Assembly (NCBI GenBank): GCA_963752975.1
Contig: CAVWAG010000004.1
Span: forward strand, 87,660 to 151,659
From: an uncultured Chloroflexia bacterium
GTDB taxonomy: Bacteria; Chloroflexota; Dehalococcoidia; GIF9; UBA5629
DNA: 64,000 nucleotides
Reading direction: 5' to 3'
The stretch's first letter is position 1. Every line of letters starts with the position of its first letter. This document shows, piece by piece, positions 11,914 through 38,097 of this stretch. A program made the translations under genes and the position numbers. Below the pieces are notes generated by a model. The model worked only from the letters and a program-made list of their open reading frames with translations, did not search any database and was not told the origin of the DNA.

Positions 11914-11934
11914 CATGTCATAGGAGTACAAATT

Positions 11935-12041: not shown

Positions 12042-12076
12042 ATTTGCTCGAGAATAAACAAGAAAAGGAGGTTGGA

Positions 12077-13045: not shown

Positions 13046-13053
13046 ACGGACAT

Positions 13054-14477: not shown

Positions 14478-16154
14478 ATGACGACTAATCCCTATGCCGC
14501 CAGGCCGTGGCTGAAAAACTACGACGCGCACGTTCCCGCGAACCTCAATTACCCCTGGACGTCCTTCATCGATATGGCCAGGAAATGTTTCAGCGAAGTG
14601 CCCGACCGGGCGGCCATGGTCTACATCGACACTATCATCACCTTTAAAGAGCTCGACAGTCTGTCCAACAAATTTGCCAACTTCCTGCTCGCCAAGGGCG
14701 TAAAGCAGGGCGACGTGGTCGGCCTCAACATGCCCAATATACCCGCCTTCATCATTTCATTTATCGGCGCACAGAAGTTAGGCTGCATTACATCCGGCGT
14801 CAGCCCCCTGCTGACCGAGCACGAGCTGGAATACCAGCTCAACGATTCGGCAGCCACGGTGCTGGTCACATTCGATGTCAACCTGGCCCGCGTTAACGCT
14901 GTAATAGCTAAAACCAGAGTCAAAGCGCTGGTCGTGGCCGGCGTTTTCGACTTCATGGGACCGGTTGACTGGAGCGCGCCCGCCGGCGAGATGAAAAAGG
15001 AGGGCGCCGTCGAAGTCTACAACTACCTTGACGTTCTCAAGAAATACCCTGATAAAGAGGTGGATACCTGGGTGGACCGAGACTCACTCTGCCTGATGCA
15101 GTATACCGGTGGCACGACCGGCCCGTCCAAGGGCGCCGTGTTGACCAACCGTAATATCTCGCACCAGATATCGCAGTGGGTAACCTGGACCGACGGCAAG
15201 GTCGGTGAAGAGGTTGGAGTATCCGCCTTTCCTCTTTTCCACCTGGCCGGCCTGCTCTACTCCTACGTGGGGTTAACCATCGGCATGACACAGGTGCTGA
15301 TCCCGAACCCCCGCGACGTGGCCTTCATCGTAAACCAGATAAAAAAGTACAGGCCTACCATTGTAGCCAACGTCCCCACCATCTTCGTTGAGATGATGAA
15401 GAACGAGGATTTTCAGAAGATGGACCTCTCCTTCGTCAAGTTCTATGCCAGCGGCGCCGCGCCCTTCCCTGCCGAGCTCATCAAGCAGTTCTACGATATC
15501 GTCGGGGACAACAAGCTGGTGGAGGTCTACGGCATGACCGAGACCAGCCCCCTCATTACAGGTCAGCCTTTCCTGGGCAAAAAGAAGATCGGCTCAGTGG
15601 GCCTTCCACTGCCCGACACCGATGTCATACTGGTCGACCCGGCCACCGGCGAGATAGTCAAATTGGGTGAGCCGGGTGAGCTATGCGCACGCGGTCCGCA
15701 GATCATGAGAGGCTATCACAACAAGCCCGAGGAGACGGCCAACTCCATCCGTGAGGGATACATGCACACGGGGGACATCGCGACCATGGACGAGGACGGC
15801 TTCTTCACCATCGTGGACCGGCTCAAGGACATGGTCAGCGTCAGTGGCATGAAAGTCTTCACCCGTGAGCTGGACGAGGTCATCGCACAGCATCCCGACG
15901 TGGCCATGGGAGCATCAATTGGCATCCCCGACCCCAACCGGGCTTTCACCGAGATAGTGGCCTCCGCCATCGTTCTCAAGCCCGGCGTCGCGGCCAACGA
16001 CGCGGCCAAGCAATCGATCATCAGCTTCATGCGCGAGAGGGTCGCGCCTTACAAGGTGCCCAAGCAGATCATCTTCATGGAAACCCTCCCGCTCAGCGCG
16101 GTGGGCAAGATACTCAAGCGCGAGTTGCGCGAGATGCTCAAGCCCAAGGTATAG
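14478..16154 (+). CDS. AMP-dependent synthetase/ligase (long-chain fatty-acid-CoA ligase-like)
   Basis: 558 aa with YTGGTTGPSKGA, YGMTE, GDIATMDEDGFFTIVDRLKDM and SAVGKILKRELR motifs. GGAGG RBS. Confidence 0.9.
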   Translation: MTTNPYAARPWLKNYDAHVPANLNYPWTSFIDMARKCFSEVPDRAAMVYIDTIITFKELDSLSNKFANFLLAKGVKQGDVVGLNMPNIPAFIISFIGAQKLGCITSGVSPLLTEHELEYQLNDSAATVLVTFDVNLARVNAVIAKTRVKALVVAGVFDFMGPVDWSAPAGEMKKEGAVEVYNYLDVLKKYPDKEVDTWVDRDSLCLMQYTGGTTGPSKGAVLTNRNISHQISQWVTWTDGKVGEEVGVSAFPLFHLAGLLYSYVGLTIGMTQVLIPNPRDVAFIVNQIKKYRPTIVANVPTIFVEMMKNEDFQKMDLSFVKFYASGAAPFPAELIKQFYDIVGDNKLVEVYGMTETSPLITGQPFLGKKKIGSVGLPLPDTDVILVDPATGEIVKLGEPGELCARGPQIMRGYHNKPEETANSIREGYMHTGDIATMDEDGFFTIVDRLKDMVSVSGMKVFTRELDEVIAQHPDVAMGASIGIPDPNRAFTEIVASAIVLKPGVAANDAAKQSIISFMRERVAPYKVPKQIIFMETLPLSAVGKILKRELREMLKPKV

Positions 16155-20733: not shown

Positions 20734-22017
20734 TTATCTTTCCGCCATGACTACGTCACTGATCCGGGCGCTATCCCGGGCATAATATCTTGTCATTATC
20801 AGGGTCGTCACCAAGGACAATGCGGCCACGGGTATGGTCCAGAACAACCCGTTTATTATGCCCTGTGCCCCACCGCCGGTGGCATCAGATACAATGCCCA
20901 CAAAGACCGGGCCCAGAACGCCACCACCCAGCTGAGCTACCGTCAGCATGATGCCGACAGCAACAGCGCGCACCGACACGGGTATCACGTCATGCACCAA
21001 TACATTCATTACAGGAGCCATGAATGCCATTATCAGCGCTGTTGCTATATATGCGGGCAGCCAGGCCTGAAATGGTATTTTACCTACTATTAAAATGGAG
21101 ACAAGACAGGCCGCCAGTGAAAAGAAAGTGGCCGCAATTAAAAAGAGTGGCCTTCCGACTTTGTTGCGCACCTGCCAGCGGTCGGCTATTAACCCTCCCA
21201 AAGGAGCGATAAGGTTTAAAAGGCCTATTGCTCCCATGGCTGTACCCACAGTCAGAGGATCCATTTTATAGGAAAGCATGATCAGGGAAGGCACCCATGC
21301 CTGTGTGGCAAATATTAAAAAATACAGGAAGGTTGTACTGATAACGAAAAGCCAGTAGGACTTGATCTTAAACAATTCTCCCCACTGCCTGAAATATGCT
21401 TTGCTCAGGACACCCTCACCCTCCTTTCGCTCAGCCCTGTAATCCGGCAGGAAGAGCACAATAATTGCCGGGATGATGCCAAAGATACCGAATATATAAA
21501 AGGCTATGCGCCAATCATGCGTGGCGTTCAGCACGGCGCCTCCTACGAACAATCCCAGCGCCCCGCCGATCGGCATGCACATCATAAATATGCCCATAAT
21601 CCGTGTCCTTATCTCCTTGGGGAAGGTAAGCCCGAGCCAGGTTTGCCCGGCCGGCTGGTAACCGGCTTCACCTGTGCCCACCATAAATCTTGCCGCGAAC
21701 AGGTGCCATAGCTGAACGGCAAGGCCTGTTGCGATGGTGAATGCACTCCAGATAAGCGACATCACCATGATAACTTTGCGGCGCGCGAACCTGTCAGCCA
21801 GCACCGCCGTTGGGATGAGGAAAACGGCGACGCCTAATTGGAGCAGTGAAGGGAGCATGCCGGCCTGGGCATCGGTCAGGTTGAAAGAGCTCTTGATCGC
21901 CTGGAGCGATATAGCCAAGATGGAGCGGTTGGCCCAATCCGACAGTTGCAGTAAACAAAGGACGATGAGAATGGTGATCGCGGCGCCCCTGCCCACTTGA
22001 TACGTTTTCTCCTGCAT
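20734..22017 (-). CDS. MFS transporter
   Basis: About 12 predicted TM segments and an LADRFARRKV (D-R-x-x-R-R) loop motif. Paralogue of 33549-34847. The ATG at 22017 follows AAGGGGG. Confidence 0.85.
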   Translation of the reverse strand: MQEKTYQVGRGAAITILIVLCLLQLSDWANRSILAISLQAIKSSFNLTDAQAGMLPSLLQLGVAVFLIPTAVLADRFARRKVIMVMSLIWSAFTIATGLAVQLWHLFAARFMVGTGEAGYQPAGQTWLGLTFPKEIRTRIMGIFMMCMPIGGALGLFVGGAVLNATHDWRIAFYIFGIFGIIPAIIVLFLPDYRAERKEGEGVLSKAYFRQWGELFKIKSYWLFVISTTFLYFLIFATQAWVPSLIMLSYKMDPLTVGTAMGAIGLLNLIAPLGGLIADRWQVRNKVGRPLFLIAATFFSLAACLVSILIVGKIPFQAWLPAYIATALIMAFMAPVMNVLVHDVIPVSVRAVAVGIMLTVAQLGGGVLGPVFVGIVSDATGGGAQGIINGLFWTIPVAALSLVTTLIMTRYYARDSARISDVVMAER

Positions 22018-22095
22018 ATTTTCCCCCTTAGTAACCAAATCGTTTAATCAGGATGGTCATCCCCCGCCCTTGAGACGACGGCGCGCTCCTATATA

Positions 22096-22137: not shown

Positions 22138-24175
22138 TTAATGTCCCTGTCCCTGTGTAAGCGTCTCTTCCATCCTGACCAGTGACTCCTTCAAGTTCTT
22201 CACCCGGTCTGCCGCCAGGTTGGGATTTTCCAGCGCCTGGAAGAGAATGTTGCCCTCAGTATCCGCCGGCACCGGCCAGCTCATCAGGTGGCAGATGGTG
22301 GGGACCACGTCGGTGAGCCCGCATGTCCTCTTGAGCGAAAGGCCTTTCTTGACGCCCGGTCCGTAGTATGCCTCCAGCGCCCTCAGCTTGCCGATGCCCC
22401 ACTCGGTGGTGGGCAGGTGCGGGCCATGCTGCCCGCCGAACTCGGGGTAGATGGCATAGACCACGTCGCCCACGCCATCGCCGTGCAGCCCCAGTATCCT
22501 GGCGTCCTTGTTGGTAAGGGCCAGCGCCACGGGCCGCTTGCCGGTCTTGGGATCAACGTACGAATAGAGTGCATCGATTATCTCCTGCTGGACTTTCTCG
22601 TAGTCGGCGGGATCGACGATGCCTTCCGGGGTCGCGGCCCTTCAGGTTGACATAAACGTAAATTGTGCGCTGCGGGAAAGCCTTAGACCGTTTAATGTCG
22701 GGAGTGTGCAGGTTCAGAGTTCCCAAATCAAGTATCTCGCGTGGCAGTCTGTCGCCTGTCATGGATTTGAACAGTGTTTCAATCTGTTCGGCGCTTTCCT
22801 GGGCTTTCCTGATATCGCGTTCCCCTTCCTGACCTTCCATGGCGCAGAGCCCGTTCTGGATCAGCGGGATATAGGGGTTGAAGACCGCGCCATCGGCCAC
22901 GGCCCCGTGGTCGGAAACGAGCACGAAGAGCGTATCTTCCCCGGCGGCCTCCATGATCCTGCCCAGCATTTTATCCTGGCTTTGCAGCACCTTGAGATGC
23001 ATCTCCCAGGCCCTCTTGTTCAGGTCCTTGCTGGTACAGGTGTTTTCGTCCATCTCGGTAAGGATGGAGTGGTATACCCAGTCGATCGTGTGGATGTGCA
23101 TGAAGAACAGGTCCCATGGGTACTTGGTCATCAGCTTGGTGGCCACGTCAGCCAGGTGTATATCGTGCATCGCGGAGATCTCTTCGTAGGTATCCATCTC
23201 GTAGATGCCCATGGTGTAGCCGATCAAACCTCCCGAAAAGGCAGGGTACCCTTCCTCGCTGGTCAGTTCCCTGGCCACCTCGGGCGGGTTGGTCCAGCCC
23301 TCGACAGGGATAAATGAGCTCACAATAAGTACGAAATCTTCAGCATCCTCCGTCAGTTCCAGCAGCTTGGCCTTAAACGACGCCTCGATCTCCCTGCCGT
23401 CCTGCGTCTTGAACTTGCGGTAAATCTTCTTGCTCCACTCACCCTTGCTTAAGGTGAAGAGAGCGTCCTGCATGTCCTGGGTCGGTGAGATGGTGAGCCG
23501 GTCATAGCCCTTGCCCGCAGACTGCGTAACAAGCACGTACCATGAAAGCGGCGCCATCTGCTCAATGCTCCTATTGAACAAAACTTCGAATTTGGCCCAT
23601 AGAGGATCCTCACAGCCGGCAGGCAGGTTCTTCCAACCCTCAGCGTCCGTCAATTCGACCCTGGTGGCATTCGGGAAAAAACCATTTGTAATCACATGGT
23701 CCATGCCCAGCGGCATGCTTGACTCAAGCCCGGGATGCCCGTTGCGCATCTCGCCGATGGAAAGCCCGGCTCCCATGACCATGATCCCGTTCTTCATCCT
23801 GGAGGGCCAGGCGACCGGGTAGTTGCAAACTATGCATTTCTTGCCCACGGCATCGAGCTTGTCCCAGATGAACTCGGATTTGCAGTTCTCGCTGGAGAAG
23901 GCCTCAAAGATGTTGGCATTCACCTGCGGAGTGCCCTCCGTGTGCAGGTGGAAATCGGTCACCTTGTGCGTGCCCGGCCAGGCGCCCGTGGCTATGGTGG
24001 TCCAGTTGGGCGGTGTAATGGTGGGGTAGGGGGACAGGCAGTTTTCGGCCAACACACCCCCCTCGAAGACCTTCTTGAAGTTGGGCAGGTGACCCTCGGC
24101 AATGTGTTTTTTGATCAGGTGCGGCTCGGCGCAATCGAAGCCGATAACCGCTACCTTTTTAGGAACGTTTGCCAT
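22138..24175 (-). pseudogene. alkaline-phosphatase-superfamily protein (type I phosphodiesterase/NPP-like), paralogue 1, frameshifted near 22636
   Basis: The 540-aa and 130-aa ORFs are collinear with the intact 671/673-aa paralogues. The observed GACCCCGGAAGGC would read DPEG, like the paralogues, if one base were removed. Confidence 0.8.
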
Positions 24176-24218
24176 TTATTCATCTCCTTTGTTATTAAAT
24201 AACCTATTTATTTGCATG

Positions 24219-25598
24219 TTATTTTTCATGTCCCTTTTTCCTGTTTCTGCGTCCTATGACGCCGAGGAACAACGTGGGGGACTTTGCTTCTTTACCGGCC
24301 AATCCGGCTTCAGTGCAGGCCTTTTTAGCCTTTCGCAGGTAAAGCCAGTTCTGCCATACTCCCTTCGGCTCAAATCCGAAGTAGTTCTTCAACCAGAATG
24401 CACCACCGCTGTTCTTCAGCCTTTCACGGCGGCCCAATGTAACATGGTATCTTGACTTCAATTCCCGCGCTTCTTCATAAGTATTCACGCGCACCATCCT
24501 GCCATCAGCCCCCGGGACCACGTACCCGCTGGCTATCAGCATGTCGTATCGTTTTTTCGTCTCGTCGAAATCCGGCCCACACACGAGTGAACACTGGCCA
24601 CAGGTGAGCACGTAGGGGTCTTTCAGCCCTGTTACTCCCATGTGCTCATGGGCAGTGACCAGCAGCCTGCCGATCTCTTCCTCATTGCCAGGCAGGTTTT
24701 CATAATCAGGTATCAGGTCCTCAACGCTTTGCCTTGGGTAGAGAATGGAATTGCCGCGGCGTATAACATCGTATCGCGGCCCGCCATCCCCTGACCTTGG
24801 GCCTTCCCTCATCATCATCATCCTTATCGAGGTCCGATTATCAGGATCAGGCCGATGGTCCGAATATTCTCGTATCCAGTGCCGGCCCCAGTTGGTCCAT
24901 TTTTTATCGGACGAGATACCATGTAGACCGAAACAGGGCATGTTGCACAGGTCCAGGTTATCGCGCTTGCCGCGCGCGTGCAATTCGCCATTTATCAGCA
25001 GGTACTCTTCTTCATCATCACGAAACATCCGCAGTGTGCAGGACTTATCGCAGAGCTTGCAGGTACGGCAACGGTTATCCATGGTGTCACGGGTAGGCAA
25101 TATGGGATCGGATTTTAGCGGCGCATCGGTGATAACTGTGCCCAAATATACGGCAGCTCCATATTGCCTGGTAACTACGTTGCCGGATAGGCCAAATGTG
25201 CCCAGGCCCGCCACCACGGCGCCGAAGCGGTGAGAAAAACTTGGCTGCGGGGTAAACGGGTCAGGGGAGCGCCTGTAGGTGTTATTCGGGGGAACGGGCA
25301 AAGCCTTGTATCCCAATTCGACAATATAATCGGCAAGCTCCTTTGAAATGCGGTGCATGCGCTGGCACGATTTCAACTGTTCCAGGTTGTGAGGCCCATG
25401 GGATTTCTTGGATAGGAAATCGTAGATAGCAGGTACGTTCATCGGCAGTGCCATGGAGACGATCGCCCTGGCGCCCTTCAATGTATATGTGGGGTCGAGA
25501 GATGGCGGGCCGTCGAACCGGCCCTCTCCCGCTATACCAACCAACCCTATACCGGCTTTCCTGGCAAAATCCTTGATTTTCTCTTCATTACTCTGCAT
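24219..25598 (-). CDS. QueG/RdhA-superfamily Fe-S protein (epoxyqueuosine-reductase-like), long form
   Basis: 459 aa. N-terminal IKDFARKAGIGLVGIAG, core SHRFGAVVAGLGTFGLSGNVVTRQYGAAVYLGTVITD and CRTCKLCDKSC resemble B. subtilis QueG (recalled from memory). Paralogue of 43101-44516. Confidence 0.65.
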   Translation of the reverse strand: MQSNEEKIKDFARKAGIGLVGIAGEGRFDGPPSLDPTYTLKGARAIVSMALPMNVPAIYDFLSKKSHGPHNLEQLKSCQRMHRISKELADYIVELGYKALPVPPNNTYRRSPDPFTPQPSFSHRFGAVVAGLGTFGLSGNVVTRQYGAAVYLGTVITDAPLKSDPILPTRDTMDNRCRTCKLCDKSCTLRMFRDDEEEYLLINGELHARGKRDNLDLCNMPCFGLHGISSDKKWTNWGRHWIREYSDHRPDPDNRTSIRMMMMREGPRSGDGGPRYDVIRRGNSILYPRQSVEDLIPDYENLPGNEEEIGRLLVTAHEHMGVTGLKDPYVLTCGQCSLVCGPDFDETKKRYDMLIASGYVVPGADGRMVRVNTYEEARELKSRYHVTLGRRERLKNSGGAFWLKNYFGFEPKGVWQNWLYLRKAKKACTEAGLAGKEAKSPTLFLGVIGRRNRKKGHEK

Positions 25599-25626
25599 TA
25601 GTTAGTCTCCGCTGTAATCCAACCGA

Positions 25627-27303
25627 TCAGGTTCGAAAGCGACCCATGAATATCAGGAATGCCGGCCAGCTCCCTTCCAGGTTTATCTTCCCCTGCTGCA
25701 CCATGGCAGCAGTATCAGCTAATTTCAGCGCCATCATCTTGTACGTGAGCGAATCTGTTGTAACAATTGCCACAGGTGCCGGGGTGCCGGGCAGCGGCTG
25801 TCCTTCCGCAATCTCCGCTACGCCGTTGCGGACAGTGACAGTAAACTGCCTGCTCACGTCCGGGAATATAAAGAGCACGGATTCATATACGCCCCTGGCT
25901 TTGTCGGGGATAAGCCTCGGCTGCAAATTGGTAAATATCAGGTCAACGGGCAACCCCGCCACCAGGTCGGGATCGAGTTTCCCCGGAAAGTCCGGCGGTC
26001 GAGCTTTATCCAGTTCGAGGGCCGATTCCAGTAAATAAGCCCTGCCATTGGTATTAGAGGTATTATCAGCAATCTGCCGGTAGGCCGTGGCCAGCAGGCC
26101 ATCCAGCTTCGTAGCGGTGTCACCCGAGGCCAGGCCGCTGTCTTTCAATTTGGCCAGGAGATGTACCGCCCACTGAGGATCGCCATCCGCCAGGGCTTTG
26201 CCGGCCAGCCCGGCCAATTTTTCGGGCCCGCCCATCAGCTCCACCTCGCGTCTGGCCAACTCATCATGATTCAGCGGATATAGCTTGTCCGCCCTGCCGT
26301 CAAACCAGCCCTCGTTATTTGTGTATATCGCCCGCGCCGACCAGCTCACCTGGCCATACCCCTCCCAGAGGTAAGGCAATTGCGCAAGCTGGGGCGGCAG
26401 TTTGATATTTTCAGCTATCGTATCGATGTCCTGGCCTGCGTTGGCGCGCCTGATCACTTCGTCCCGTACCCACTGTATGGCATCCCGGTAGTTGGTCAGT
26501 ATCTCTTCGATCCGGGCTCTCCCGTTCACCGGGCTTGTATGCGAGGGGACGAGATGCTCCGGTTGCAGCCGCCGCATATCGTCCAGGCTGTTTATCCACC
26601 CGTCGGTCGGGCGCGGGCGGCTCCCGCGTATGGTGTACAGGTTGGGGAAAGCACTGTAGTAATCATCCGCACACAGAAGCGTATTGTCTGCGGGTATCCA
26701 GACGAAGAGAGTATCATCCGTCTCGCCCGGGGCGGTGTGAAGTTCTATTGTCAGGCCACCGATCTCCAGCGACTTCATGCCCGCGAAAGTGTCGGTGGGC
26801 ATAATCGTGCCGGTCTCGGCCAGTTCTTCAAGTGTGTAGGATTTCAGCACAGGCCCGATGGCAGAGCACGGAAGATCCTCGCGTGACAAATGGTATCCGA
26901 ATTGCCTGTAGCCGCGCGCCTTCTCCGCCTGCATGAAGGTGCCGTATTGCTTCACGAAATTGCCAACGAAGTTTTCCTCGGCCCATATGCGCGTACCGGG
27001 TTCCATCCATGCGCTCGTCCCGCCGACATGGTCAATATGGGTATGCGTATATATAATAGCCTTGACCGGTCCGGAAGGCGCGCTTTCGGAAAAGGCTTTC
27101 TTTATCGCTCGTGCGGCCGCCGGGCACTGGGACGTATCGACGATAACGTTACCTTCCTCGGTATGTATCAGCTCCGTATTGGCCAGGTCATAGCCGACGG
27201 CCACCCAAACATGCTCGGACACCTGCTCGACGCGCGGCGGCCCGATGTCATCCCGGCAATGCTGCGTTATGGTCTCAATTGCGCCCACATTCCTGACCCT
27301 CAC
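25627..27303 (-). CDS. MBL-fold alkyl/aryl sulfatase (SdsA1/BDS1 type) with dimerisation and SCP2-like C-terminal domains
   Basis: 558 aa with THTHIDHVGG (HxHxDH), PGETDD and PSH motifs, and a C-terminal SCP2-like segment. The ORF opens with GTG and has no RBS; see 27300-27398. Confidence 0.8.
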   Translation of the reverse strand: MRVRNVGAIETITQHCRDDIGPPRVEQVSEHVWVAVGYDLANTELIHTEEGNVIVDTSQCPAAARAIKKAFSESAPSGPVKAIIYTHTHIDHVGGTSAWMEPGTRIWAEENFVGNFVKQYGTFMQAEKARGYRQFGYHLSREDLPCSAIGPVLKSYTLEELAETGTIMPTDTFAGMKSLEIGGLTIELHTAPGETDDTLFVWIPADNTLLCADDYYSAFPNLYTIRGSRPRPTDGWINSLDDMRRLQPEHLVPSHTSPVNGRARIEEILTNYRDAIQWVRDEVIRRANAGQDIDTIAENIKLPPQLAQLPYLWEGYGQVSWSARAIYTNNEGWFDGRADKLYPLNHDELARREVELMGGPEKLAGLAGKALADGDPQWAVHLLAKLKDSGLASGDTATKLDGLLATAYRQIADNTSNTNGRAYLLESALELDKARPPDFPGKLDPDLVAGLPVDLIFTNLQPRLIPDKARGVYESVLFIFPDVSRQFTVTVRNGVAEIAEGQPLPGTPAPVAIVTTDSLTYKMMALKLADTAAMVQQGKINLEGSWPAFLIFMGRFRT

Positions 27304-27398
27304 CGTGCTCCGGAAGAGCAGCCGGCGCCCTGCAATAAAACCAGGGCCAGCAATAATACTGACAATATACCGCTGAAATTGTTATGCAATCTGTTCAT
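27300..27398 (-). CDS. 32-aa lipoprotein signal-peptide ORF, probably the displaced N-terminus of the sulfatase
   Basis: MNRLHNNFSGILSVLLLALVLLQGAGCSSGAR* ends exactly where the sulfatase ORF begins, in a frame offset by 1 nt. Not in the supplied track. Confidence 0.45.
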   Translation of the reverse strand: MNRLHNNFSGILSVLLLALVLLQGAGCSSGAR

Positions 27399-27442
27399 CT
27401 TTTCCTGACCTCAATTTGATCCTGACTCGATCTGCGAGGCTG

Positions 27443-28276
27443 CTATTTGCCTTTGTTCTTTTTATGTTCTTCAAACCTTTCCCGCAGGTATGGCCAGCCC
27501 GGGGTTATGCCTTCCGTCAGACTCATGGCCATCATGGTGTGCGGAGGTTGCCCGACATTCATATGGCCCCCGGTCAGGAAGAGGTTTTCATCGACCTTAA
27601 ATATCTTCTCCGCCGGCATGCCTATAGCGATCTCAGTTTCATGAGCAGCAGCCACAGAATGGTCACCGAATCCGGGGATCACGATCTGCGGAACACCTGT
27701 GATCCATGGAACAAACCCTCCCTTCTGGCATGACTCTCCAAATCCCGAGAAATCTGATGAGGGGAAATCTTTACCGTCGTATACCATGGCATGGATAAGG
27801 TGCATCACATTAAGGCTGTTGCCGTAGGCCGTGACTGTATCTGGTATTAATTTTGCGTCCTGCAGCGGGGCACACACAAAACCGATATATCCTTTCATTT
27901 TCTCCGGGTAATTTTTACCCCAGCGTTTAATATAGAGGTTCCAGACGCCGGTTTCCGCCTCCAGGTCCTTGTGCCAGCCCTGCAGTATCTGGCTATGAAT
28001 GATCTCATCCGGGGTGGCCTCTTCCCACATATGCCAGGCTGTGGCAGCGGTGCAGAAACAGTCCTTGCCCGTCATGGCGATCGAGAAACCGAACCTCCTG
28101 GCATACGTCAGCGCCTGGCAGAGGCTGGCCTGCTGTCCCATCGCGCTGGGCCTGATGCTCCCTTCAGGTATCTCCGCCTCGCTCTTGATATATTTGATAC
28201 CTATGGGATAGGTAGCCAGGTGCAATTTGTCGTATACGCTTTTGCCCGCCTTCCTGTATTCTTCCAGTGTTCTCAT
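27443..28276 (-). CDS. DUF169 (COG2043-like) family protein
   Basis: 277 aa. The pattern YPIGIKY...SLCQALTYARRFG...C.C resembles DUF169. Paralogue of 46012-46853. Confidence 0.6.
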   Translation of the reverse strand: MRTLEEYRKAGKSVYDKLHLATYPIGIKYIKSEAEIPEGSIRPSAMGQQASLCQALTYARRFGFSIAMTGKDCFCTAATAWHMWEEATPDEIIHSQILQGWHKDLEAETGVWNLYIKRWGKNYPEKMKGYIGFVCAPLQDAKLIPDTVTAYGNSLNVMHLIHAMVYDGKDFPSSDFSGFGESCQKGGFVPWITGVPQIVIPGFGDHSVAAAHETEIAIGMPAEKIFKVDENLFLTGGHMNVGQPPHTMMAMSLTEGITPGWPYLRERFEEHKKNKGK

Positions 28277-28287
28277 AGACTACCTCA

Positions 28288-28866
28288 CTAATCATTATTC
28301 TTGTTCAGTAACGCTTCTTGCAGCATACGCACGGCGGTATCCTCATACCGCGAAATGTCCAGGTTCCGCCACAATAGGCATAATTTGGCAATCCACTGGA
28401 CAAATCCGCCGGTCAACTCCGATGCTATTACCGGTTCGTAATCCTGCATGTCACCGTTAGCAACCCGCTCTCGGAAAAAACGCCGTAAAATTTTCTGTCC
28501 CCTGGGATTCTCAATGGCCGCACCGCCGGCAGCTAATCCCAGGCGCAAATCAAGCAGTTCCAGTAAATCCCGCTCCCGGGAAGCTACGGCTAACGCGGCA
28601 TGCACCGCTTCTTTTATGGCTATGCGCGCGTCAGGATTTTGCATGGCCCGAAGAAGCGCATCAGCCACCATCTCCTGGTAACGGTCGCATAGAGCGTCAA
28701 GCATGGCCTGCTTGGACTCAAAGTAAAGGTACACCGTCCCCTTGGCAACCCCGGCAAGCTGAGCGATCTCTGCTACATGCGCCTTCGCATAGCCATTCTG
28801 CTTGAACACTTCGCGCGCGGCTCGTAATATATCCTCACGCCGGTTGGGATCAGCGAACTTGGCCAT
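28288..28866 (-). CDS. TetR/AcrR family transcriptional regulator
   Basis: 192 aa with ILRAAREVFKQNGYAKAHVAEIAQLAGVAKGTVYLYFESKQAML. Confidence 0.9.
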   Translation of the reverse strand: MAKFADPNRREDILRAAREVFKQNGYAKAHVAEIAQLAGVAKGTVYLYFESKQAMLDALCDRYQEMVADALLRAMQNPDARIAIKEAVHAALAVASRERDLLELLDLRLGLAAGGAAIENPRGQKILRRFFRERVANGDMQDYEPVIASELTGGFVQWIAKLCLLWRNLDISRYEDTAVRMLQEALLNKNND

Positions 28867-28872
28867 GATACC

Positions 28873-29307
28873 TCACTTTACCCGCTTGATGCTGGCCTCG
28901 ACATCTATACCCTCGCGCAGCGAGTACATGGCCAGCGTATCGCGGCTGACGATCTCCAGGCACTCGTCTAAAATCGACTGGTCGGCGTCGCCGATATCCA
29001 CCTCTATCTCTACCTGTATCTCATTAATCCGCGTGCGCAAAACCGAGTCCTTCTCCTTATTTGAGGCGGAACGGCCGGTCAGTGACCGCACATCAGCGCC
29101 GCGTTTGATCAAATCCGATGCCAGCGTGGTAGCCACACAGCACAGGGCAGCCGCGTTTAATATGCGGTTGGCCCAGTGCTTGCGGCCCTCCGGCGAAAGA
29201 TCTTTGTTGCTCACCTGGAACACAGGTACACCATCCGGCGTCATGGTGAAGAGATGGCCATCGCTGCCATCCCTACGGTATTCGACGACACAATCTGTCA
29301 GTTCCAT
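28873..29307 (-). CDS. OsmC/Ohr-family-like protein
   Basis: 144 aa from the ATG at 29307 (AAAGGAGG RBS). Its size and the AAALCCVATTLAS segment resemble OsmC-like proteins. Weak call. Confidence 0.5.
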   Translation of the reverse strand: MELTDCVVEYRRDGSDGHLFTMTPDGVPVFQVSNKDLSPEGRKHWANRILNAAALCCVATTLASDLIKRGADVRSLTGRSASNKEKDSVLRTRINEIQVEIEVDIGDADQSILDECLEIVSRDTLAMYSLREGIDVEASIKRVK

Positions 29308-29365
29308 TGCTCCTCCTTTGGCAGCGGTGCGGCTTACTGGCCGCACCGCCCTTTATCTCAATTCT

Positions 29366-31381
29366 TCAGGCACATTCATGCTTGTCCCAGGGCTGACGTT
29401 CGCCGCGCTGCAGCGCCGTCTCCATCCTGGCCAGGCCTGCCCTCAGCTTGCCTATCTCGTCGGATTTGAAGTCGGGATTTTTAAATAGTTGGTAAAGTAC
29501 CGCGCCATCGACCGTTGAAGGTACAGGCAAATCCATCAGGTAGCAGACGGTCGGAACTATATCGATCAGGTTGCAGGTCCGCTGCAGCCGGTAGCCCTTC
29601 TTGATGCCCGGGCCGGTAAAGGTCAGCAGCGCCTTCAGATTGCCCACGCCCCATTCAGCCGCGGGCAGGATGTTGGCGTGTTGTCCGGAAAACCAGGGGT
29701 AAACCGCGTATACCACGTCGCCCACATGGTCGCCGTAAAGTCCCAGTATGCGTGCGTCCTGCTTGGTCAGCGCCAGTGACACCGGGCGCTTGCCCGTCTC
29801 CGGGTCCACATAGGTCAGCAGCGCATCAATTATCTGCTGCTGCACTGCCTTGTAATCCTTGGGGTCCACGATGCCCTCGGGGTCGCGTCCCTTGAGGTTT
29901 ACGTAGATATATATGGCACGCTGGGGAAAACACTTGGATTTATTAACGTCGGGCGCCTGGAAGGCTACCTTGAACTCCTCTATCAAACCCTGTGCTCTTC
30001 CCTTTATGTCTCCCACGTTGGCGAAATCGATCTGCTTCTCAGACAGCACTGTCAGCCCGGCCGGTCCCAGCATCTTGTACGGATCTATAGCGGGGCCATC
30101 CGGTACCGCGCCGTGGTCGGATACAGTGATGACCAGGGTATCCTTATCCAGCACCCCTAATATCTGTGCCAGCATCTTGTCCTGTGCCTGGTATATCCTC
30201 AGGTGCGCGTCCCAGGCCGCCTTAAGCTTGTCTTTGTCTTTGTTCAGGTCAGGGTCCATCTCGGTCAGTATCATGTGGTAGGCCCAGTCAGGTGCATGCG
30301 CGTGCATGAAGAACATGTCCCATTCATGCTTGGTCATCAGGGCACACGCGCAATCAGCCATGTATTGGGAGTAGAATTCGTTGATCTCCACGAAGGTGTT
30401 CAGATCATACCATTCCAGCGCGTATCCTATGATACCTCCGGAATTTCCGTTGATTCCCTCGGCAGAAACAAGCTCAGCCATGATTTCAGGCGGGTTGCTT
30501 ATTCCGGTCCTGGGGCCGATTGAGCTGATGTATAGCCTGAAGTCCTCGGCATCGTCGCCCAGCTCTATCAGCTTGCAGCGGAAGAAACCCTCCTCCTCCT
30601 TGCCATCATCCAACTTGAGTTTTACATTGATTACAGGGCTCCATTCCCCAACCGCCAGGGTGCAGAAGGCTTCATTGAAATCCCTGGCCGGCGACAGCAT
30701 CGCCCTGTCGTAGCCGTTATCACCCGACTGGCGTGCAAGTACGTACCAAGTGGTTGGAGCAATAGGAGTTTCCGCATCACGGAATACCATTTTGGCCTCG
30801 AGCTCAAGCGGTTCATTTTCTTTCTTTGGCAGGTTTTTCCAGCCCTTGGCCTCGGAAAACTTGCCCTTTATCCCCCGGGGGAAAAAGCCGGATGTGATAA
30901 GCATATCATTGCTTAACCTGGCGCGGTTAAACATAGCCGGCATACCACCGCGATGCTCGCCCAGCGCCAGTCCCCTGCCACCAACCACGATGCCGTTCTT
31001 CATTTTGGAAGGCCAAGAACCAGGGTAGTTGAGTACGATACATTTCTTGCCGGCCTTGTCTGCTGTATCCCACAGGTACTCCGCTTCGCAAAGCTGGCTG
31101 TCGAAGGCCTGGACACAATTGGTGTTGACCGGTGTTGTCCCCGGCATGTGATAGTGGAAATCGGTTATACCGTGCGTTCCCGGCCAGGCGCCGGTGGCGA
31201 TGGAAGCCCAGTTGGGCGGTGTCACGGTCGGGTAGGGAACAAGGCAGTTTTCCGCTATCACGCCGCCATCAATGAGCTTTTTAAATGTCGGCAGGTGGCC
31301 GTCCGCGATATGTTTCTCGATCAGGTGGGGTAATGCGCAATCCAGCCCGATTACCGCTACTTTCTTTGGTACATTTGCCAT
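29366..31381 (-). CDS. alkaline-phosphatase-superfamily protein (type I phosphodiesterase/NPP-like), paralogue 2
   Basis: 671 aa with N-terminal VAVIGLDCA, candidate Thr nucleophile motif PTVTPPNW, and VSDHGA. No signal peptide. AAGGAGG RBS. Confidence 0.8.
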   Translation of the reverse strand: MANVPKKVAVIGLDCALPHLIEKHIADGHLPTFKKLIDGGVIAENCLVPYPTVTPPNWASIATGAWPGTHGITDFHYHMPGTTPVNTNCVQAFDSQLCEAEYLWDTADKAGKKCIVLNYPGSWPSKMKNGIVVGGRGLALGEHRGGMPAMFNRARLSNDMLITSGFFPRGIKGKFSEAKGWKNLPKKENEPLELEAKMVFRDAETPIAPTTWYVLARQSGDNGYDRAMLSPARDFNEAFCTLAVGEWSPVINVKLKLDDGKEEEGFFRCKLIELGDDAEDFRLYISSIGPRTGISNPPEIMAELVSAEGINGNSGGIIGYALEWYDLNTFVEINEFYSQYMADCACALMTKHEWDMFFMHAHAPDWAYHMILTEMDPDLNKDKDKLKAAWDAHLRIYQAQDKMLAQILGVLDKDTLVITVSDHGAVPDGPAIDPYKMLGPAGLTVLSEKQIDFANVGDIKGRAQGLIEEFKVAFQAPDVNKSKCFPQRAIYIYVNLKGRDPEGIVDPKDYKAVQQQIIDALLTYVDPETGKRPVSLALTKQDARILGLYGDHVGDVVYAVYPWFSGQHANILPAAEWGVGNLKALLTFTGPGIKKGYRLQRTCNLIDIVPTVCYLMDLPVPSTVDGAVLYQLFKNPDFKSDEIGKLRAGLARMETALQRGERQPWDKHECA

Positions 31382-31494
31382 ATTGTTCCTCCTTAATTGT
31401 GTTTTCTATGCATATCTGTAAAACTGATTGCTTTCTCAGATTTTGTTCAATGTGTTGATTTCAACGATTGGCATGTGCCATTCCTCTTATGACC

Positions 31495-33516
31495 CTACGG
31501 GGCGTCATCTTTTTTATCCCAGGGCTGGCGCTGGGTGCGTTGCAGCGCTAACTCCATCCTGGCTAAACCCTCTTTCAGCTTGGCAATTTCATCCGGTTTG
31601 AAATTGGGGGTTTTGAAAGTCTGGTAGAGCACGGCGCCCTCGGTTGTCGAAGGCAGCGGCAGGTCCATCAGGTAGCAGATGGTCGGCACTATGTCGATCA
31701 GGTTGCAGGTCCGCTCCAGCCTGTAGCCCTTCTTAATGCCAGGCCCGGTAAAAGTCAACAGCCCTTTGAGAGAACCGATGCCCCACTCCGCTGTAGGCAA
31801 TATGTTGCCATGCTGGCCGGCCACCCAGGGATAGACGGCGTAGATCACGTCACCCACCCAGTCACCGTACAGGCCCAGTATGCGGGCATCCTGCTTGGAT
31901 AAAGCAAGGGACACCGGGCGTTTACCAGTCTTGGGATCAACGTAAGTGAGCAATGCATCGATGATTTGCTGCTGCACTTTTTGGTAATCGGCAGCTTCCA
32001 CGATGCCTTCAGGATCGCGTCCCTTGAGGTTGATGTAAACATACAGTTCCCTCTGGGGGAAACACTTGGATTTACTGACATTGGGCTGCTGGGCAATCGC
32101 CCTGAATGTCTGTATCTCACCCTGGAAGCGGGTCGTGCTTGTTACCGGTATGGATAAAGTATTAACCTGCTTCTCTTCAAGTACCGTCAAGCCCGCCGCG
32201 ATGAGCGGTTTAAAAGGATCGAAGATGACGCCATCGGCAACGGCGCCGTGGTCAGAAACGAGTATGAATAGCGTCTCCTTATCGCAGGCCTGCATTATCT
32301 GCGCCAGCATCCGGTCCTGGGCCTCGTATATCTTCAAGTGTGCATCCCAGGCCGCTTGCCTCTTGATCTCATCCTTGGTCAGGTCAGGGTCCATCTCTGT
32401 CAATATCAGGTGGTATGCCCAATCCGGCGAATGGGCGTGCATGAAAAAAAGGTCCCATTCATTTTTACTCAGCAGCATACTGGCGGCATTGGCCAGCCAC
32501 TTCGTGTAGAAATCGTTGATCTCCACGAAAGTATCCAATTCGTACCACTCGAGTACAAACCCGAGTATGCCTCCCGCGTTTAAAGTATAGCCATCTCTGG
32601 TCTGTAGCTGGCCAGCAATCTCAGGGGGGCTGCTCCAGCCCGATTTGAAGCCGATCTGGGAAATATAGAAACGCAGATCCTCAGCCTCGTCGGATAGTTC
32701 CAGCAGCTTGCAGCGGAAGTCTGCCTCCTGCTCTGTGCCATCATTAAGCTTCAACTTCGTAGTTATGTTAGGGCTCCACTCACCCACTGACAACGTGCAG
32801 AAGGCATCCTTAAAGTCCTTTGTCGGGGATAAGGTGACGCGGTCATAACCGCCGCCGCCTGACTGGCGCGCCAGCAAATACCAGACAGGCTGTATCAAAT
32901 CCGGGTGAGCGCCTACCATGATCAGGCCAGCCTCTATTTCCATCGGGTCTTTTTCCTTGGCAGGCAGGTTTTTCCAACCTGTGGCGGGTTTGAAAGCACC
33001 TTTCACAGCCCTCGGGTAGATACCGGTGGTAATCAGCTGATCAAGGCAACCTTTAACGCTGGAACTCAAACCCATGATCCCATCACGGTTTTCGCCTACC
33101 GAAAGTCCACTGCCGCCAACAGTGATCCCGTGCTTTAGCTTGGCCGGCCATGAACCGGGGTAGTTCAGTACAATACACTTCTTGCCCGCCCGGTCAGCCG
33201 CATCCCAGAGGTATTCAGCCTTGCAACGCTCACTGCTGAACGCCTGGACGATGTTGGCATTGGTGGGGGTAGTCCCGTGAAGGTGTACATGGAAGTCGGT
33301 TATGCCATGTGTACCCGGCCAGGCGCCGGTGGCGATGGAGGCCCAGTTGGGCGGTGTAACGGTCGGGTAGGGGACAAGGCAATTGTCGGCGATGACACCG
33401 CCTTCAATAAGTTTCTTGAAAGTGGGAAGGTGCCCGTCCTTGATATGTTTCTCAATCAGGTGGGGCTCTGCGCAGTCCAGCCCGATTATTGCCACTTTCT
33501 TCGGTACATTTGCCAT
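31495..33516 (-). CDS. alkaline-phosphatase-superfamily protein (type I phosphodiesterase/NPP-like), paralogue 3
   Basis: 673 aa, in tandem with paralogue 2 and carrying the same motifs (IGLDCA, PTVTPPNW, VSDHGA). Confidence 0.8.
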   Translation of the reverse strand: MANVPKKVAIIGLDCAEPHLIEKHIKDGHLPTFKKLIEGGVIADNCLVPYPTVTPPNWASIATGAWPGTHGITDFHVHLHGTTPTNANIVQAFSSERCKAEYLWDAADRAGKKCIVLNYPGSWPAKLKHGITVGGSGLSVGENRDGIMGLSSSVKGCLDQLITTGIYPRAVKGAFKPATGWKNLPAKEKDPMEIEAGLIMVGAHPDLIQPVWYLLARQSGGGGYDRVTLSPTKDFKDAFCTLSVGEWSPNITTKLKLNDGTEQEADFRCKLLELSDEAEDLRFYISQIGFKSGWSSPPEIAGQLQTRDGYTLNAGGILGFVLEWYELDTFVEINDFYTKWLANAASMLLSKNEWDLFFMHAHSPDWAYHLILTEMDPDLTKDEIKRQAAWDAHLKIYEAQDRMLAQIMQACDKETLFILVSDHGAVADGVIFDPFKPLIAAGLTVLEEKQVNTLSIPVTSTTRFQGEIQTFRAIAQQPNVSKSKCFPQRELYVYINLKGRDPEGIVEAADYQKVQQQIIDALLTYVDPKTGKRPVSLALSKQDARILGLYGDWVGDVIYAVYPWVAGQHGNILPTAEWGIGSLKGLLTFTGPGIKKGYRLERTCNLIDIVPTICYLMDLPLPSTTEGAVLYQTFKTPNFKPDEIAKLKEGLARMELALQRTQRQPWDKKDDAP

Positions 33517-33548: not shown

Positions 33549-34847
33549 TCAGCATTCGAAAGTTATTTCTCGGCGTAAACTCGTCAGTACATTTGCACTA
33601 TCGCCGGGGTAATATTTGGTTAAAATCAGGTTGGTTACAATTGAGAGCGCGAAAAACGGAAGTGTCCATATCATCCCCCACTGCAACCCTGAAGCCCCTC
33701 CCCCCAAATAGTCAGAGATAGCCCCGACAGCAACAATGCCCAGCGTAGCCCCCAATAGCTGCGCTATCAGACCGGATATGCCTATGGCCGTCGACCTTAA
33801 ACCCGGAGTTATAACATCATTGATAATGGTTAACCCGACCGGCAGGTTTAATCCGACGAAAACTGTCGCCAGGGCAAGCAATACCATAAACAATATAACT
33901 GATTGACCCAGGCTAAAAAATGCTGCGATATAGAAAATAAGGGCCAGGAAGGCTGTCAAAGCCATGAATAACGGCCTCCCGTTTTGATGGCTCTTCTGCC
34001 AGCGATCGGCTATTACGCCGCCCAGTGGAGCAAGCAGTAACATCAGGGCAACCCAGCCGAACTTCTGCCCTGCTTCAGCAGCATCCATATGATAAGCTCG
34101 CATCAGTAGCGCAGGTGTCCACACACTCATAGCTGTCGTGGTACTCAGGAAAAAAATCCCACCGATAGTCGGCATCCAGTATGAAGGGCATTTGAATATC
34201 TTTGACCAATCCTTGAAATATTTTCTGCTCAGCGCCGCCTCGCCCTTTTCCTTGACCGTTTTATAATCGGGCAGAAAATATACAATCGCTGCGAGGATGA
34301 CACCGGGTATGCCGAACACGTAAAACGGCGTACGCCAATCGCCGGTGGAAGTTATCAGCCAGCCGCCCACGATCAGGCCCACAACCATGCCCAGCTGACT
34401 GCAGGCAAAAAATATTGCTATTATAATGGACCTTATATCCTTGCGGAAAGAAACAGAGAGCCAGGCCTGCCCCACCGGAGAATACCCGGCTTCACCTGCA
34501 CCGACCATGAAACGCGCAGCTAACATTTGAACGATATTGGTACAAAATCCCGTCAACAATGTGGCAGCGCTCCAGATCAGGGCCATAACTGCAACGATCT
34601 TGCGCCGTGCCCACCTGTCGCCCAGTACGGCGGCAGGGATCATCATCACAGCTATACCCGCTGTGACCAGGGCCGCCAGGCTGCCGGCCTGCGCATCGTT
34701 CAATTTAAAATATGCCTTAACCGCCTCCAGCGCCACGGTCATGATGGACCGGTCTGCCATATTGATGAGCCAGAGCAAAGACAGTATGACCAGTATGGTA
34801 ATCGCTGAACCCCTGCCAACCTCGTACTTTTTCTCTTCCAAATTCAT
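33549..34847 (-). CDS. MFS transporter
   Basis: 432 aa, multi-TM, with an LGDRWARRKI loop motif. Paralogue of 20734-22017. Confidence 0.85.
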   Translation of the reverse strand: MNLEEKKYEVGRGSAITILVILSLLWLINMADRSIMTVALEAVKAYFKLNDAQAGSLAALVTAGIAVMMIPAAVLGDRWARRKIVAVMALIWSAATLLTGFCTNIVQMLAARFMVGAGEAGYSPVGQAWLSVSFRKDIRSIIIAIFFACSQLGMVVGLIVGGWLITSTGDWRTPFYVFGIPGVILAAIVYFLPDYKTVKEKGEAALSRKYFKDWSKIFKCPSYWMPTIGGIFFLSTTTAMSVWTPALLMRAYHMDAAEAGQKFGWVALMLLLAPLGGVIADRWQKSHQNGRPLFMALTAFLALIFYIAAFFSLGQSVILFMVLLALATVFVGLNLPVGLTIINDVITPGLRSTAIGISGLIAQLLGATLGIVAVGAISDYLGGGASGLQWGMIWTLPFFALSIVTNLILTKYYPGDSANVLTSLRREITFEC

Positions 34848-36498: not shown

Positions 36499-38097
36499 TT
36501 ATTTCAGTTTGCGCAACTCAGCCCTGAGCATTTTACCCAGTACATTCTTGGGTAGAGCGTCGATAAACTGCACCTGCCTGGGAGTTTTAAACTTTGGCAA
36601 TGATTTGCTGCAATACTCGATGATCTCTTGCTCGCTGTACCTTTCCCCCGGCTTAAGTACCACGAAGGCCTTGATCTCCTCTCCATAAACGCGGTCTGCC
36701 ACTCCGACACAGCACGCTTCAGCCACCCCGGGATGGCTGGATAGGACATCCTCGACCTCTTTGGGAGATATGTTTTCGCCGCCTCGTATAATGAGGTCTT
36801 TTTTACGGTCGGTTATATAGAAATAGCCGTCCTCGTCCCTGTGGCCGATATCACCGGTATGCAGCCAGCCTTTCTTGAGGGTCTCCGCTGTCTCTTCCGG
36901 CAGGTTCCAGTACCCTTTCATAACAGCCGCTCCTTTAATCACCAGCTCACCGGTAGCACCGGCCGGCAGTTCACGGTCATTATTATCGAAGACGCTCATC
37001 TTGTTACAGGCCAGCATGTTTATGCCTATTGAGCCATACTTTGGCGGGGCTGATCCCGGGTTGCCTGACGTGGTAGCCCCCGACTCAGTCATGCCCCAAC
37101 CCTCGTCGATGTGCACACCGACCTTCTCCTTCCACTTGAGGCCGACACCCGGATCAAGCGCGGCGGCACCGCAGGCACAGAACTTGAGCGACGACAGGTC
37201 GTATTTATCCAGGTCCGGGTAGTCCAGCAGGTGTACATACATAGTAGGCACAAAGGCAACATAGCCTATTTTCAGCTCCTGTATCAGCCTCAGGGCTTCC
37301 GCCGGGTTCCACCACTTCATCACGGCGAACCTCCCGCCTATCAGGGCGCCGAAGTTCAGGAAAGCGATACCATACGAGTGGGAAAGAGGTAACACTGCCA
37401 GGAACAGTATATTCCGGTTGGACCCGGTCACCATCTGCTCCTCTTCCACCATCCTGTGAGTTTTTTCATCCATCTGCCGTACTATATTACTCACAGTGGT
37501 GGGTGCACAAAGGAACTGGAAATCGGCAAAGCAGACCGCGTTTATCCAGAGCGTGTAATGGGTGTGCATTACACCTTTGGGATTGCCCGTTGTGCCGGAG
37601 GTATAAATCAGGGCTGCCAGGTCGTCATTATCCATGTCCTCGATGCGGCACTCGCCGCTGCTATCCTTTAGCAGCTTGCTGTAATACAGCGTCTCCGGCA
37701 CGTCGGTTTTATCAATGAGCAAGATATGCTTCAGATCAGGGGCATTTTCCTGGGCAGTGCGGACCCAGGGCAGAAAATCCGAGGTGGTGATGGTCACTTT
37801 GGCGCCGCAGTCCTTGTAAATATATGATATCTGGTCAGGTTTGAGTATAGGATTCATCGGGACTATGACTGCACCTATCCTGTAGACTGCGTTGAATGCC
37901 ACAAATATCTCGATACAATTAGGTAATTGCGTAACTACACGGTCGCCCTTCCTTACGCCCAGCGACTTCAAGGCATTGCCGAGGCGGCTGGCCATCCTGT
38001 TCAATTCTGCATTGGTATACCATCTGCCCTCAAAATAGCAGGCTTCGTATTCCCCGAATTTCCGCAACCCGTCTTCATACAAGTTAGCCAGGTTCAT
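36499..38097 (-). CDS. AMP-dependent synthetase/ligase (acyl-CoA synthetase family)
   Basis: 532 aa with YTSGTTGNPKGV, WGMTE, GDIGHRDEDGYFYITDRKKDLI and KNVLGKMLRAELR motifs. Confidence 0.9.
   Translation of the reverse strand: MNLANLYEDGLRKFGEYEACYFEGRWYTNAELNRMASRLGNALKSLGVRKGDRVVTQLPNCIEIFVAFNAVYRIGAVIVPMNPILKPDQISYIYKDCGAKVTITTSDFLPWVRTAQENAPDLKHILLIDKTDVPETLYYSKLLKDSSGECRIEDMDNDDLAALIYTSGTTGNPKGVMHTHYTLWINAVCFADFQFLCAPTTVSNIVRQMDEKTHRMVEEEQMVTGSNRNILFLAVLPLSHSYGIAFLNFGALIGGRFAVMKWWNPAEALRLIQELKIGYVAFVPTMYVHLLDYPDLDKYDLSSLKFCACGAAALDPGVGLKWKEKVGVHIDEGWGMTESGATTSGNPGSAPPKYGSIGINMLACNKMSVFDNNDRELPAGATGELVIKGAAVMKGYWNLPEETAETLKKGWLHTGDIGHRDEDGYFYITDRKKDLIIRGGENISPKEVEDVLSSHPGVAEACCVGVADRVYGEEIKAFVVLKPGERYSEQEIIEYCSKSLPKFKTPRQVQFIDALPKNVLGKMLRAELRKLK

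Follow-up and report, generated by a model that had tools for sequence, protein, structure and literature searches.

Cytoplasmic, transporter-paired NPP-like paralogues with a beta-rich insert in an uncultured Dehalococcoidia bacterium

Introduction

Nucleotide pyrophosphatases/phosphodiesterases (NPPs), such as the Xanthomonas enzyme (Protein Data Bank (PDB) entries 2GSN and 7N1S) and the vertebrate ecto-NPPs ENPP1-7, belong to Pfam family PF01663. NPP, PafA and PhoA-type enzymes are typically exported, and PhnA, the cofactor-independent phosphoglycerate mutase (iPGM) and the phosphopentomutase DeoB are cytoplasmic. PafA and SPAP (PhoK-type; 5TJ3 and 3Q3Q) are secreted phosphate-scavenging monoesterases, PhnA (1EI6 and 3SZY) acts in the cytoplasm on a small carboxylate-bearing organophosphorus anion, and iPGM and phosphopentomutase (PF01676) are alkaline phosphatase superfamily enzymes in which a separate domain inserted in the core handles the substrate. 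Here, we describe three paralogous PF01663 genes in a 64,000-nt stretch of DNA from an uncultured Chloroflexia bacterium (GTDB class Dehalococcoidia, UBA5629; assembly GCA_963752975.1, contig CAVWAG010000004.1, positions 87,660–151,659), hereafter called the window. All three lie on the minus strand and were numbered copy 3 (31495–33516), copy 2 (29366–31381), and copy 1 (22138–24175).

The N-terminal 120 residues of the copies are co-linear with NPP and ENPP proteins, including the D...PT-x-T-(F/P)-P-N nucleophile segment, and both carry the SDHG metal-ligand motif and a C-terminal GPG...D(I/V)xPT segment. The predicted structure of copy 3 matched NPP and ENPP structures with a Foldseek probability of 1.0 and a target-normalised template modelling (TM) score of up to 0.70, at a structural-alignment identity of only 10–14%. 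Unlike these enzymes, the copies lack a signal peptide or membrane anchor, are encoded beside uptake transporters, and are approximately 290 residues longer, with an insert after residue ~127 that has no PDB match, a longer region at 425–535, and a C-terminal helix. PafA and SPAP gave the best Foldseek E-values for copy 3 (2e-14 to 6e-14) and resemble the copies in their Thr nucleophile, their NPP-like core, which probably has two metal sites in the copies too, and their size beyond the minimal NPP core. PhnA, a Thr-nucleophile NPP-clade enzyme like the copies, was both the joint best PDB sequence-profile match (E 1.7e-15) and the best NCBIfam match; however, at ~410–430 aa it is shorter and has no beta-rich insert, and the copies align with it over their N-terminal ~105 residues only. 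The sequence likeness to iPGM and phosphopentomutase was weak and below the Pfam cut-off, their fold neighbours differ, and the insert of the copies is not recognisably related to the iPGM transferase domain.

Results

The three copies are NPP-type, Thr-nucleophile members of the alkaline phosphatase superfamily, as a sequence-only reading of the locus had proposed. All of them matched the Pfam Phosphodiest model (PF01663) with 101.5–118.1 bits against a cut-off of 23, with E-values of 2.1e-33 for the intact copy 3 (673 aa) and 8.4e-34 for the intact copy 2 (671 aa). The same reading had set them apart from formylglycine sulfatases, with which the searches agreed: the Sulfatase model (PF00884) reached a maximum of 18.5 bits, in copy 1 only, against a cut-off of 25, and the C/S-x-P-x-R formylglycine motif was absent at the nucleophile position, where the segment is T-P-P-N-W. 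Scores for the Metalloenzyme model of the iPGM/DeoB family (PF01676) were 17–20.6 bits against a cut-off of 24.3, those for the PhnA equivalog (TIGR02335) were 26–37 bits against 407.55 with only residues 7–113 aligned, and that for the PafA equivalog (NF042991) was 31 bits against 650. Thus, although a well-characterised orthologous group was looked for, no curated equivalog model was reached by the three copies in the NCBIfam scan. A 60-sequence family profile matched ENPP1, PhnA, and the Xanthomonas NPP (Xac NPP) in the PDB at E-values of 1e-15 to 1e-14. When the C-terminal half alone was compared with PDB sequences, a single sequence gave no match, and a 16-sequence profile matched iPGM chains only, and weakly (E 0.015).

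The ORF (open reading frame) translations confirmed the shared N-terminus MANVPKKVA(V/I)IG(L/F)DCA and the PT(V/I)TPPNW and VSDHGA segments in all three copies. The proposed catalytic residues aligned with those of characterised enzymes. In hidden Markov model (HMM) alignments, Asp14 corresponded to the strand-1 Asp of the NPP/PhnA metal site, and Asp422 and His423 of the SDHG motif corresponded to the metal ligands of the NPP 'VSDHGM' segment. By both HMM and single-sequence alignments, Thr54 corresponded to the second Thr of ENPP1 'PTKTFPNH', which we take to be the catalytic Thr256, and it also aligned with the position at which the PhnA mutant structure 3t02 carries Ala; a helix begins at residue 54 in the AlphaFold (AF2) model of copy 3. 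Conservation was counted in 60 homologues reaching down to ~30% identity: Asp14 was conserved in 58, Thr54 in 56 (with Ser in two more), Asn57 in 53, Asp365 in 58, His369 in 59, Asp422 in 59, His423 in 59, and His569 in 58. The spacing and secondary-structure position of Asp365-x3-His369 and His569 are those of the second NPP metal site, from which we infer that these residues probably complete a two-metal ligand set.

The AF2 model of copy 3 (predicted local distance difference test (pLDDT) score of 93.6, predicted TM score of 0.92) placed the protein among known hydrolases, with PafA, SPAP, Xac NPP, and ENPPs as the best Foldseek matches (probability 1.0, E 2e-14 to 1e-10, target-normalised TM 0.52–0.70, identity 10–14%). 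The copies do not show the canonical traits of (ecto)NPPs, which are secreted or anchored and have a core of ~380–400 residues, and their excess length is reckoned over the ~380-residue core of Xac NPP (chains of 380–385 residues). That the length of ~670 aa reflects extra or inserted domains had been anticipated from the sequence, and the model located them. The core is broken after residue ~127 by a nearly all-beta segment (strands 131–290) followed by two short helices, and resumes at a helix spanning 327–351, which gives a beta-rich insert at ~128–325 of about 170–200 residues. When modelled alone, the insert had a pLDDT of 73 overall and above 80 over its central ~140 residues, and a Foldseek search of this isolated model against the PDB returned no hit at E<=0.001 and none better than E 0.1, with TM scores of ~0.2. 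Green fluorescent protein-like barrels and adenovirus knobs were considered as relatives of the insert and treated as noise at TM ~0.2. Within the insert, Trp247 and Ser248 are nearly invariant (54 and 56 of the 60 homologues, respectively). The region 425–535, longer than in NPP, holds the only low-confidence loop of the model (~451–475), and a long additional helix at 639–661 closes the chain.

The proteins are cytoplasmic. Neither a signal peptide nor an N-terminal hydrophobic segment was found in any of the three copies, in line with the sequence-only reading, since residues 7–13 already form the first core beta-strand leading into Asp14; homologues down to ~30% identity start at the same position.

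The copies represent old lineages. Copy 3 is 69% and copy 1 51–55% identical to copy 2, and copy 1 differs about equally from both others at ~52% identity (50–69% among paralogues overall), whereas orthologues in other species are 74–98% identical to their respective copies (81–92% for copy 3 and 76–98% for copy 2). In a maximum-likelihood tree, each copy fell in its own orthologue clade (five sequences for copy 3, six for copy 2, and four for copy 1), each with a support of 100/100. At codons for identical residues, third-position identity between paralogues ranged from 0.25 to 0.87 and was mostly 0.4–0.7; synonymous sites between paralogues are saturated. All three copies are under strong purifying selection, with ratios of nonsynonymous to synonymous substitution rates (dN/dS) within 0.06–0.09 (0.06 for copy 3 and 0.08 for copy 2). 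The first 50 codons were as diverged at third positions (0.44–0.58) as the rest of the gene, so the near-identical N-termini reflect purifying selection on the catalytic core. Gene conversion, also considered as the source of these N-termini, was rejected on the same divergence of synonymous positions.

Divergence between paralogues peaked at alignment columns 151–200, 301–350, and 451–500, which correspond to the start of the insert, the insert-core linker, and the variable loop and not to the catalytic segments. From this pattern, the paralogues appear to share their chemistry and differ in substrate recognition. The diversification of substrate range that the sequence-only reading had suggested is plausible among these old paralogues, because the variation is concentrated in three non-catalytic segments.

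Gene order was compared with related loci in other metagenome-assembled genomes (MAGs; L001, L002, L004, L007, and L014), with L019–L021 and L023 added for the copy 1 region. The order of the cluster was repeated fully or partly in at least the five former loci, with a conserved core of AMP ligase, SCP2, short RdhA-like gene, major facilitator superfamily (MFS) transporter, copy 3, copy 2, OsmC, TetR, and DUF169. Loci that extend far enough continue with the alkyl sulfatase, long RdhA-like gene, copy 1, and second MFS gene, the first two of which were found in only some of the five. Behind copy 2, the order of TetR and DUF169 is the same in all five. The adjacency of MFS and copy 3 is kept in L001, L002, L004, and L014, and that of copy 1 and MFS in L007, L019, L020, L021, and L023, with MFS identities of 72–90%.

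A single additional base splits copy 1 into two ORFs (22553–24175, 540 aa; 22138–22530, 130 aa). At this point the window has CCCCGGAAGGC, as against CCCCGG-AGGC or an equivalent in three orthologues; the AA of the window is at 22624–22625. The catalytic motifs are all kept across both sides of the break, and the correct downstream frame is open and conserved, with no secondary stop codons. Its orthologues in four other genomes have open frames of 668–681 aa, and dN/dS against the orthologues was 0.08 before the shift and 0.05–0.09 after it. The frame was thus broken either very recently in the genome or only in its assembly. An assembly error is plausible because the second of the two family copies on contig C8 loses its frame at a G7 homopolymer (L012: 12184–12190), because the alkyl sulfatase gene also carries a frame break, and because the source genome (2.19 Mb) has an estimated completeness of only 75% in 18 contigs. 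In the alkyl sulfatase (25627–27303), the signal peptide MNRLHNNFSG...LLQGAGCSS lies in a different frame from the enzyme body, whereas a 96.6%-identical orthologue in L001 (12121–13902) is a single 593-aa ORF with the lipoprotein peptide in frame; unlike the NPP-like proteins, this enzyme is probably exported. In L002 (MAG MFD03726.bin.2.168), the AMP ligase, the copy 2 orthologue, and the long RdhA-like gene were each matched in two to three pieces (309–1902, 8103–10119, and 12132–13492), a fragmentation of the same kind as in the genome of the window that fits indel-rich assemblies.

The genes from one MFS gene to the other all lie on the minus strand and are given here in transcription order. 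The upstream transporter (432 aa, 33549–34847; Pfam MFS_1 E 1.3e-50) came closest, among NCBIfam models, to the ACS/D-galactonate and aromatic-acid symporter subfamilies, with scores that fell far short of the cut-offs. Copy 3 starts 32 nt after its end, and copy 2 follows behind a 113-nt spacer whose exact coordinates are 31382–31494; the tandem arrangement and the MFS gene beside each outer copy had been described correctly from the sequence. The spacer matched no Rfam family and contained no convincing minus-strand terminator. Downstream of copy 2, at a distance of 19 nt, lies an OsmC-like gene (28873–29346; Pfam OsmC E 1.8e-6), followed by a TetR regulator (28288–28866), a DUF169 protein (27443–28276), the metallo-beta-lactamase (MBL)-type alkyl sulfatase, whose detached lipoprotein signal peptide lies at ~27300–27398, and a QueG/RdhA-like Fe-S protein (24219–25598). 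The frameshifted copy 1 comes next and directly precedes the second transporter, which begins about 100–120 nt past it (434 aa from a TTG start, 20734–22038; Pfam MFS_1 E 4.7e-51); an ATG at residue 8 is the likelier start. The two MFS proteins are 47% identical. No Rfam family matched anywhere in the window, and a promoter and terminator scan of 19.5–39.4 kb gave results modestly above shuffled expectation, with no convincing operon boundaries. The region as a whole is a dense catabolic hydrolase and ligase island. The window encodes four AMP-binding (acyl/aryl-CoA ligase) proteins and a Phosphotriesterase-family (PF02126) protein, and amidohydrolase, M20 peptidase, and MBL-fold genes are also present; genes of the island lie at 7915–9684, 10393–11913, 12044–13045, 14478–16154, and 36499–38097.

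Twelve neighbourhoods of family members were examined, almost all of them around proteins with 44% or more identity to copy 3. In 10 of these, the enzyme gene had a gene for an uptake-type transporter component within ~1.5 kb. The transporters were MFS in the window (twice), C8, and L014, TRAP DctPQM in L016 and L028, TAXI-type TRAP in L029, tripartite tricarboxylate transporter (TTT) TctABC in L031, and SBP_bac_5 or ABC permease in L018, L026, and L030; in L027, the nearest binding protein was ~5.7 kb from the enzyme gene. TRAP, TAXI, and TTT systems import organic anions, typically carboxylates. Genes for CoA metabolism were also found, namely two family-III CoA-transferases in both L016 and L028, and AMP ligase, hydroxyacyl-CoA dehydrogenase, enoyl-CoA hydratase, or thiolase in L025–L027, L030, and the window. 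The enzyme gene also has an OsmC-like neighbour, both in the window and in eight other loci (L001, L002, L004, L007, L014 at 12156–12590, L018 at 10644–11072, L025 at 9012–9452, and L031 at 9078–9524). Its presence beside distant members with different transporters suggests a functional link outside the current explanations. No phosphonate-pathway genes were seen near the copies.

The source genome contains six family loci: three in the window, two on contig C8, and one, heavily fragmented, on contig C2. On C8 (L012 = G000:C8:16001-36000, 4947–13449), two family copies flank a third MFS gene, in the order corrinoid (B12-binding) protein and two URO-D-type methyltransferases, intact 662-aa copy, MFS, and broken copy, followed by fragmentary iron-containing alcohol dehydrogenase and aldehyde:ferredoxin oxidoreductase genes and an AMP ligase. 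The corrinoid protein and methyltransferases resemble an O-demethylase system. The C2 copy (L013 = G000:C2:140001-158000, 6093–10070) is in at least four pieces with an in-frame TGA. Its neighbours are pieces of a PF00884 sulfatase gene and of an arylsulfotransferase gene, and a truncated MFS gene lies ~4 kb from it; its fragmentation could be real decay or a poorly assembled stretch.

Within the genus, the family was found in 10 of 17 species with 1–6 matched pieces each, several of which may belong to one copy, and was missing from the other seven, including 98–99%-complete genomes. Outside the genus, neither the other genera of the family and order nor a sample of 150 genomes from the whole class yielded a full-length member. 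Relatives in public records come from Dehalococcoidia and Chloroflexota MAGs from lakes, peat, and sediments, and ~60%-identical proteins carry a Deltaproteobacteria label; this patchy distribution looks like that of an accessory, possibly horizontally acquired trait. A library of 1.8 billion proteins yielded 476 clusters at 50% identity (E<=1e-30), more than 1,400 clusters at 90% identity were obtained among 8,000 candidates scored, and nearly all of the best 150 clusters were 600–690 aa long. The names given to them were 'alkaline phosphatase family protein', 'predicted AlkP superfamily phosphohydrolase/phosphomutase' (Joint Genome Institute, JGI), and, for one fragment, 'arylsulfatase A-like enzyme' (JGI). 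A second homologue search with the 60-sequence profile produced no informative names, and a literature search on the subfamily and its annotation names found no paper. The subfamily is thus widespread and uncharacterised, with generic names only and no assayed or solved member.

Discussion

We lean modestly towards the view that these old paralogues are cytoplasmic two-metal Thr-nucleophile hydrolases of imported anionic organophosphorus compounds, whose carbon is passed to CoA activation. The transporters and the CoA-activating neighbours point to de-esterification of an imported anion in the cytoplasm, with the skeleton activated as a CoA thioester. In the proposed mechanism, the adjacent MFS transporter, or a TRAP, TTT, or ABC system where other lineages have one, would import the substrate, an organic anion that probably bears a carboxylate, and the enzyme would de-esterify it in the cytoplasm. 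For this, the enzyme would bind two divalent metal ions. Attack of Thr54 on the phosphoryl centre of the substrate (phosphodiester, phosphomonoester, or phosphonate) would leave the Thr covalently phosphorylated, and a metal-activated water would hydrolyse this intermediate. Enzymes of CoA activation and of the beta-oxidation type would then take over the carbon skeleton. A substrate-recognition cap may be formed by the insert together with the paralogue-variable segments, so that the chemistry would be shared and the substrates would differ.

Several points weigh against this proposal. The substrate, the identity of the metals, and hydrolase as opposed to mutase chemistry are all things that we infer, and the HMM-aligned blocks do not include Asp365/His369 and His569, whose assignment comes from motif and topology. 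The neighbourhood sample is limited to 12 places, almost all of them around proteins with at least 44% identity to copy 3, and two of them (L025 and L032) have no transporter gene nearby; in addition, the MFS genes could in principle encode exporters. Nothing indicates phosphorus scavenging, since the cluster has a TetR-type regulator and no phosphate-starvation signal was found. Moreover, the context contains sulfur-ester enzymes, namely the alkyl sulfatase in the window and the sulfatase and arylsulfotransferase fragments by the C2 copy, which would suit a sulfate-ester substrate equally.

This context underlies the alternative that the copies are cytoplasmic sulfate-ester hydrolases that need no formylglycine. 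Their substrates would be organosulfates taken up by the cell, for example the aryl or alkyl sulfates of organic acids derived from the organic matter of peat or sediment, and the copies would complement the probably exported MBL-type alkyl sulfatase of the same cluster. The alkyl sulfatase lies inside the conserved cluster and its orthologue has a lipoprotein signal peptide, the degraded C2 copy adjoins the PF00884 and arylsulfotransferase fragments, one fragment of the family bears the arylsulfatase A-like name, and faint or weak matches to the Sulfatase model occur in the C-terminal half. However, characterised sulfatases of the superfamily work with formylglycine and one metal ion, and the hydrolysis of sulfate esters by NPP-type sites is a promiscuous trace activity, whereas the copies have a Thr nucleophile in a T-P-P-N-W context with what is probably the full NPP-type ligand set. 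The Sulfatase score of 18.5 is below the cut-off of 25, and the loci of distant homologues (L016, L018, and L025–L031) have no sulfatase-related neighbours. A sulfate-ester substrate is kept in consideration because of the alkyl sulfatase and the sulfatase fragments, yet the Thr site, probably with two metals, is of the phosphoryl-transfer type, and we regard this alternative as unlikely. It is similarly doubtful that the copies would act as phosphomutases or phosphotransferases, with the substrate held by the insert as Thr54 takes up the phosphoryl group and passes it back to a different position. A cytoplasmic protein with a large domain inserted in the alkaline phosphatase core is the architecture of iPGM and DeoB, the sole PDB sequence matches of the C-terminal-half profile, weak as they are, were iPGMs, and the JGI annotation leaves 'phosphomutase' open. 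On the other hand, PF01676 scored 17–21 bits, below its cut-off of 24.3, the best fold matches were the hydrolases PafA, SPAP, and NPP, and the insert had no fold match to the iPGM transferase domain or to anything in the PDB; uptake systems and CoA-activating enzymes also suit catabolic de-esterification better.

The sequence-only reading had attributed the three copies to local amplification of an enzyme-transporter pair, and a recent amplification of this kind, with substrate range diversifying and copy 1 already decaying, would be compatible with six family loci, three of them interrupted, in one 2.19-Mb, 75%-complete genome, and with the recurrence of the enzyme-MFS-enzyme arrangement on C8. 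This explanation did not hold up and is very improbable: the orthologue clades of the tree mark three old lineages more similar to their counterparts elsewhere (74–98%) than to each other (50–69%), the gene order is shared with at least five other MAGs, and synonymous sites between the paralogues are saturated. Both halves of copy 1 have dN/dS below 0.1 without secondary stop codons, and the alkyl sulfatase and the second C8 copy are also broken where orthologues are intact, which points to assembly indels. A further, speculative possibility, which we would give only a small chance, is that the proteins form a distinct transporter-coupled class of cytoplasmic de-esterifying enzymes of anaerobes, with the insert as a new cap, an OsmC-like partner, and chemistry beyond the NPP/PafA/PhnA repertoire; examples would be formylglycine-independent organosulfate hydrolysis or the cleavage of unrecognised phosphorylated or phosphonylated organic acids in peat and sediment.

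No sign of an unusual mechanism was seen here, and these proteins do not represent a new catalytic principle. They are an architectural variant of a known enzyme type. With 3–6 diverged paralogues per genome, one Dehalococcoidia-like genus offers a natural set for mapping specificity determinants. A large family pairs what is probably a textbook Thr/two-metal phosphoryl-transfer site with a cytoplasmic location, an unmatched insert fold, and frequent organic-anion uptake neighbours, a combination that points to an unrecognised route for the use of esterified organic phosphorus, and possibly sulfur, in anoxic peat, lake, and sediment communities.

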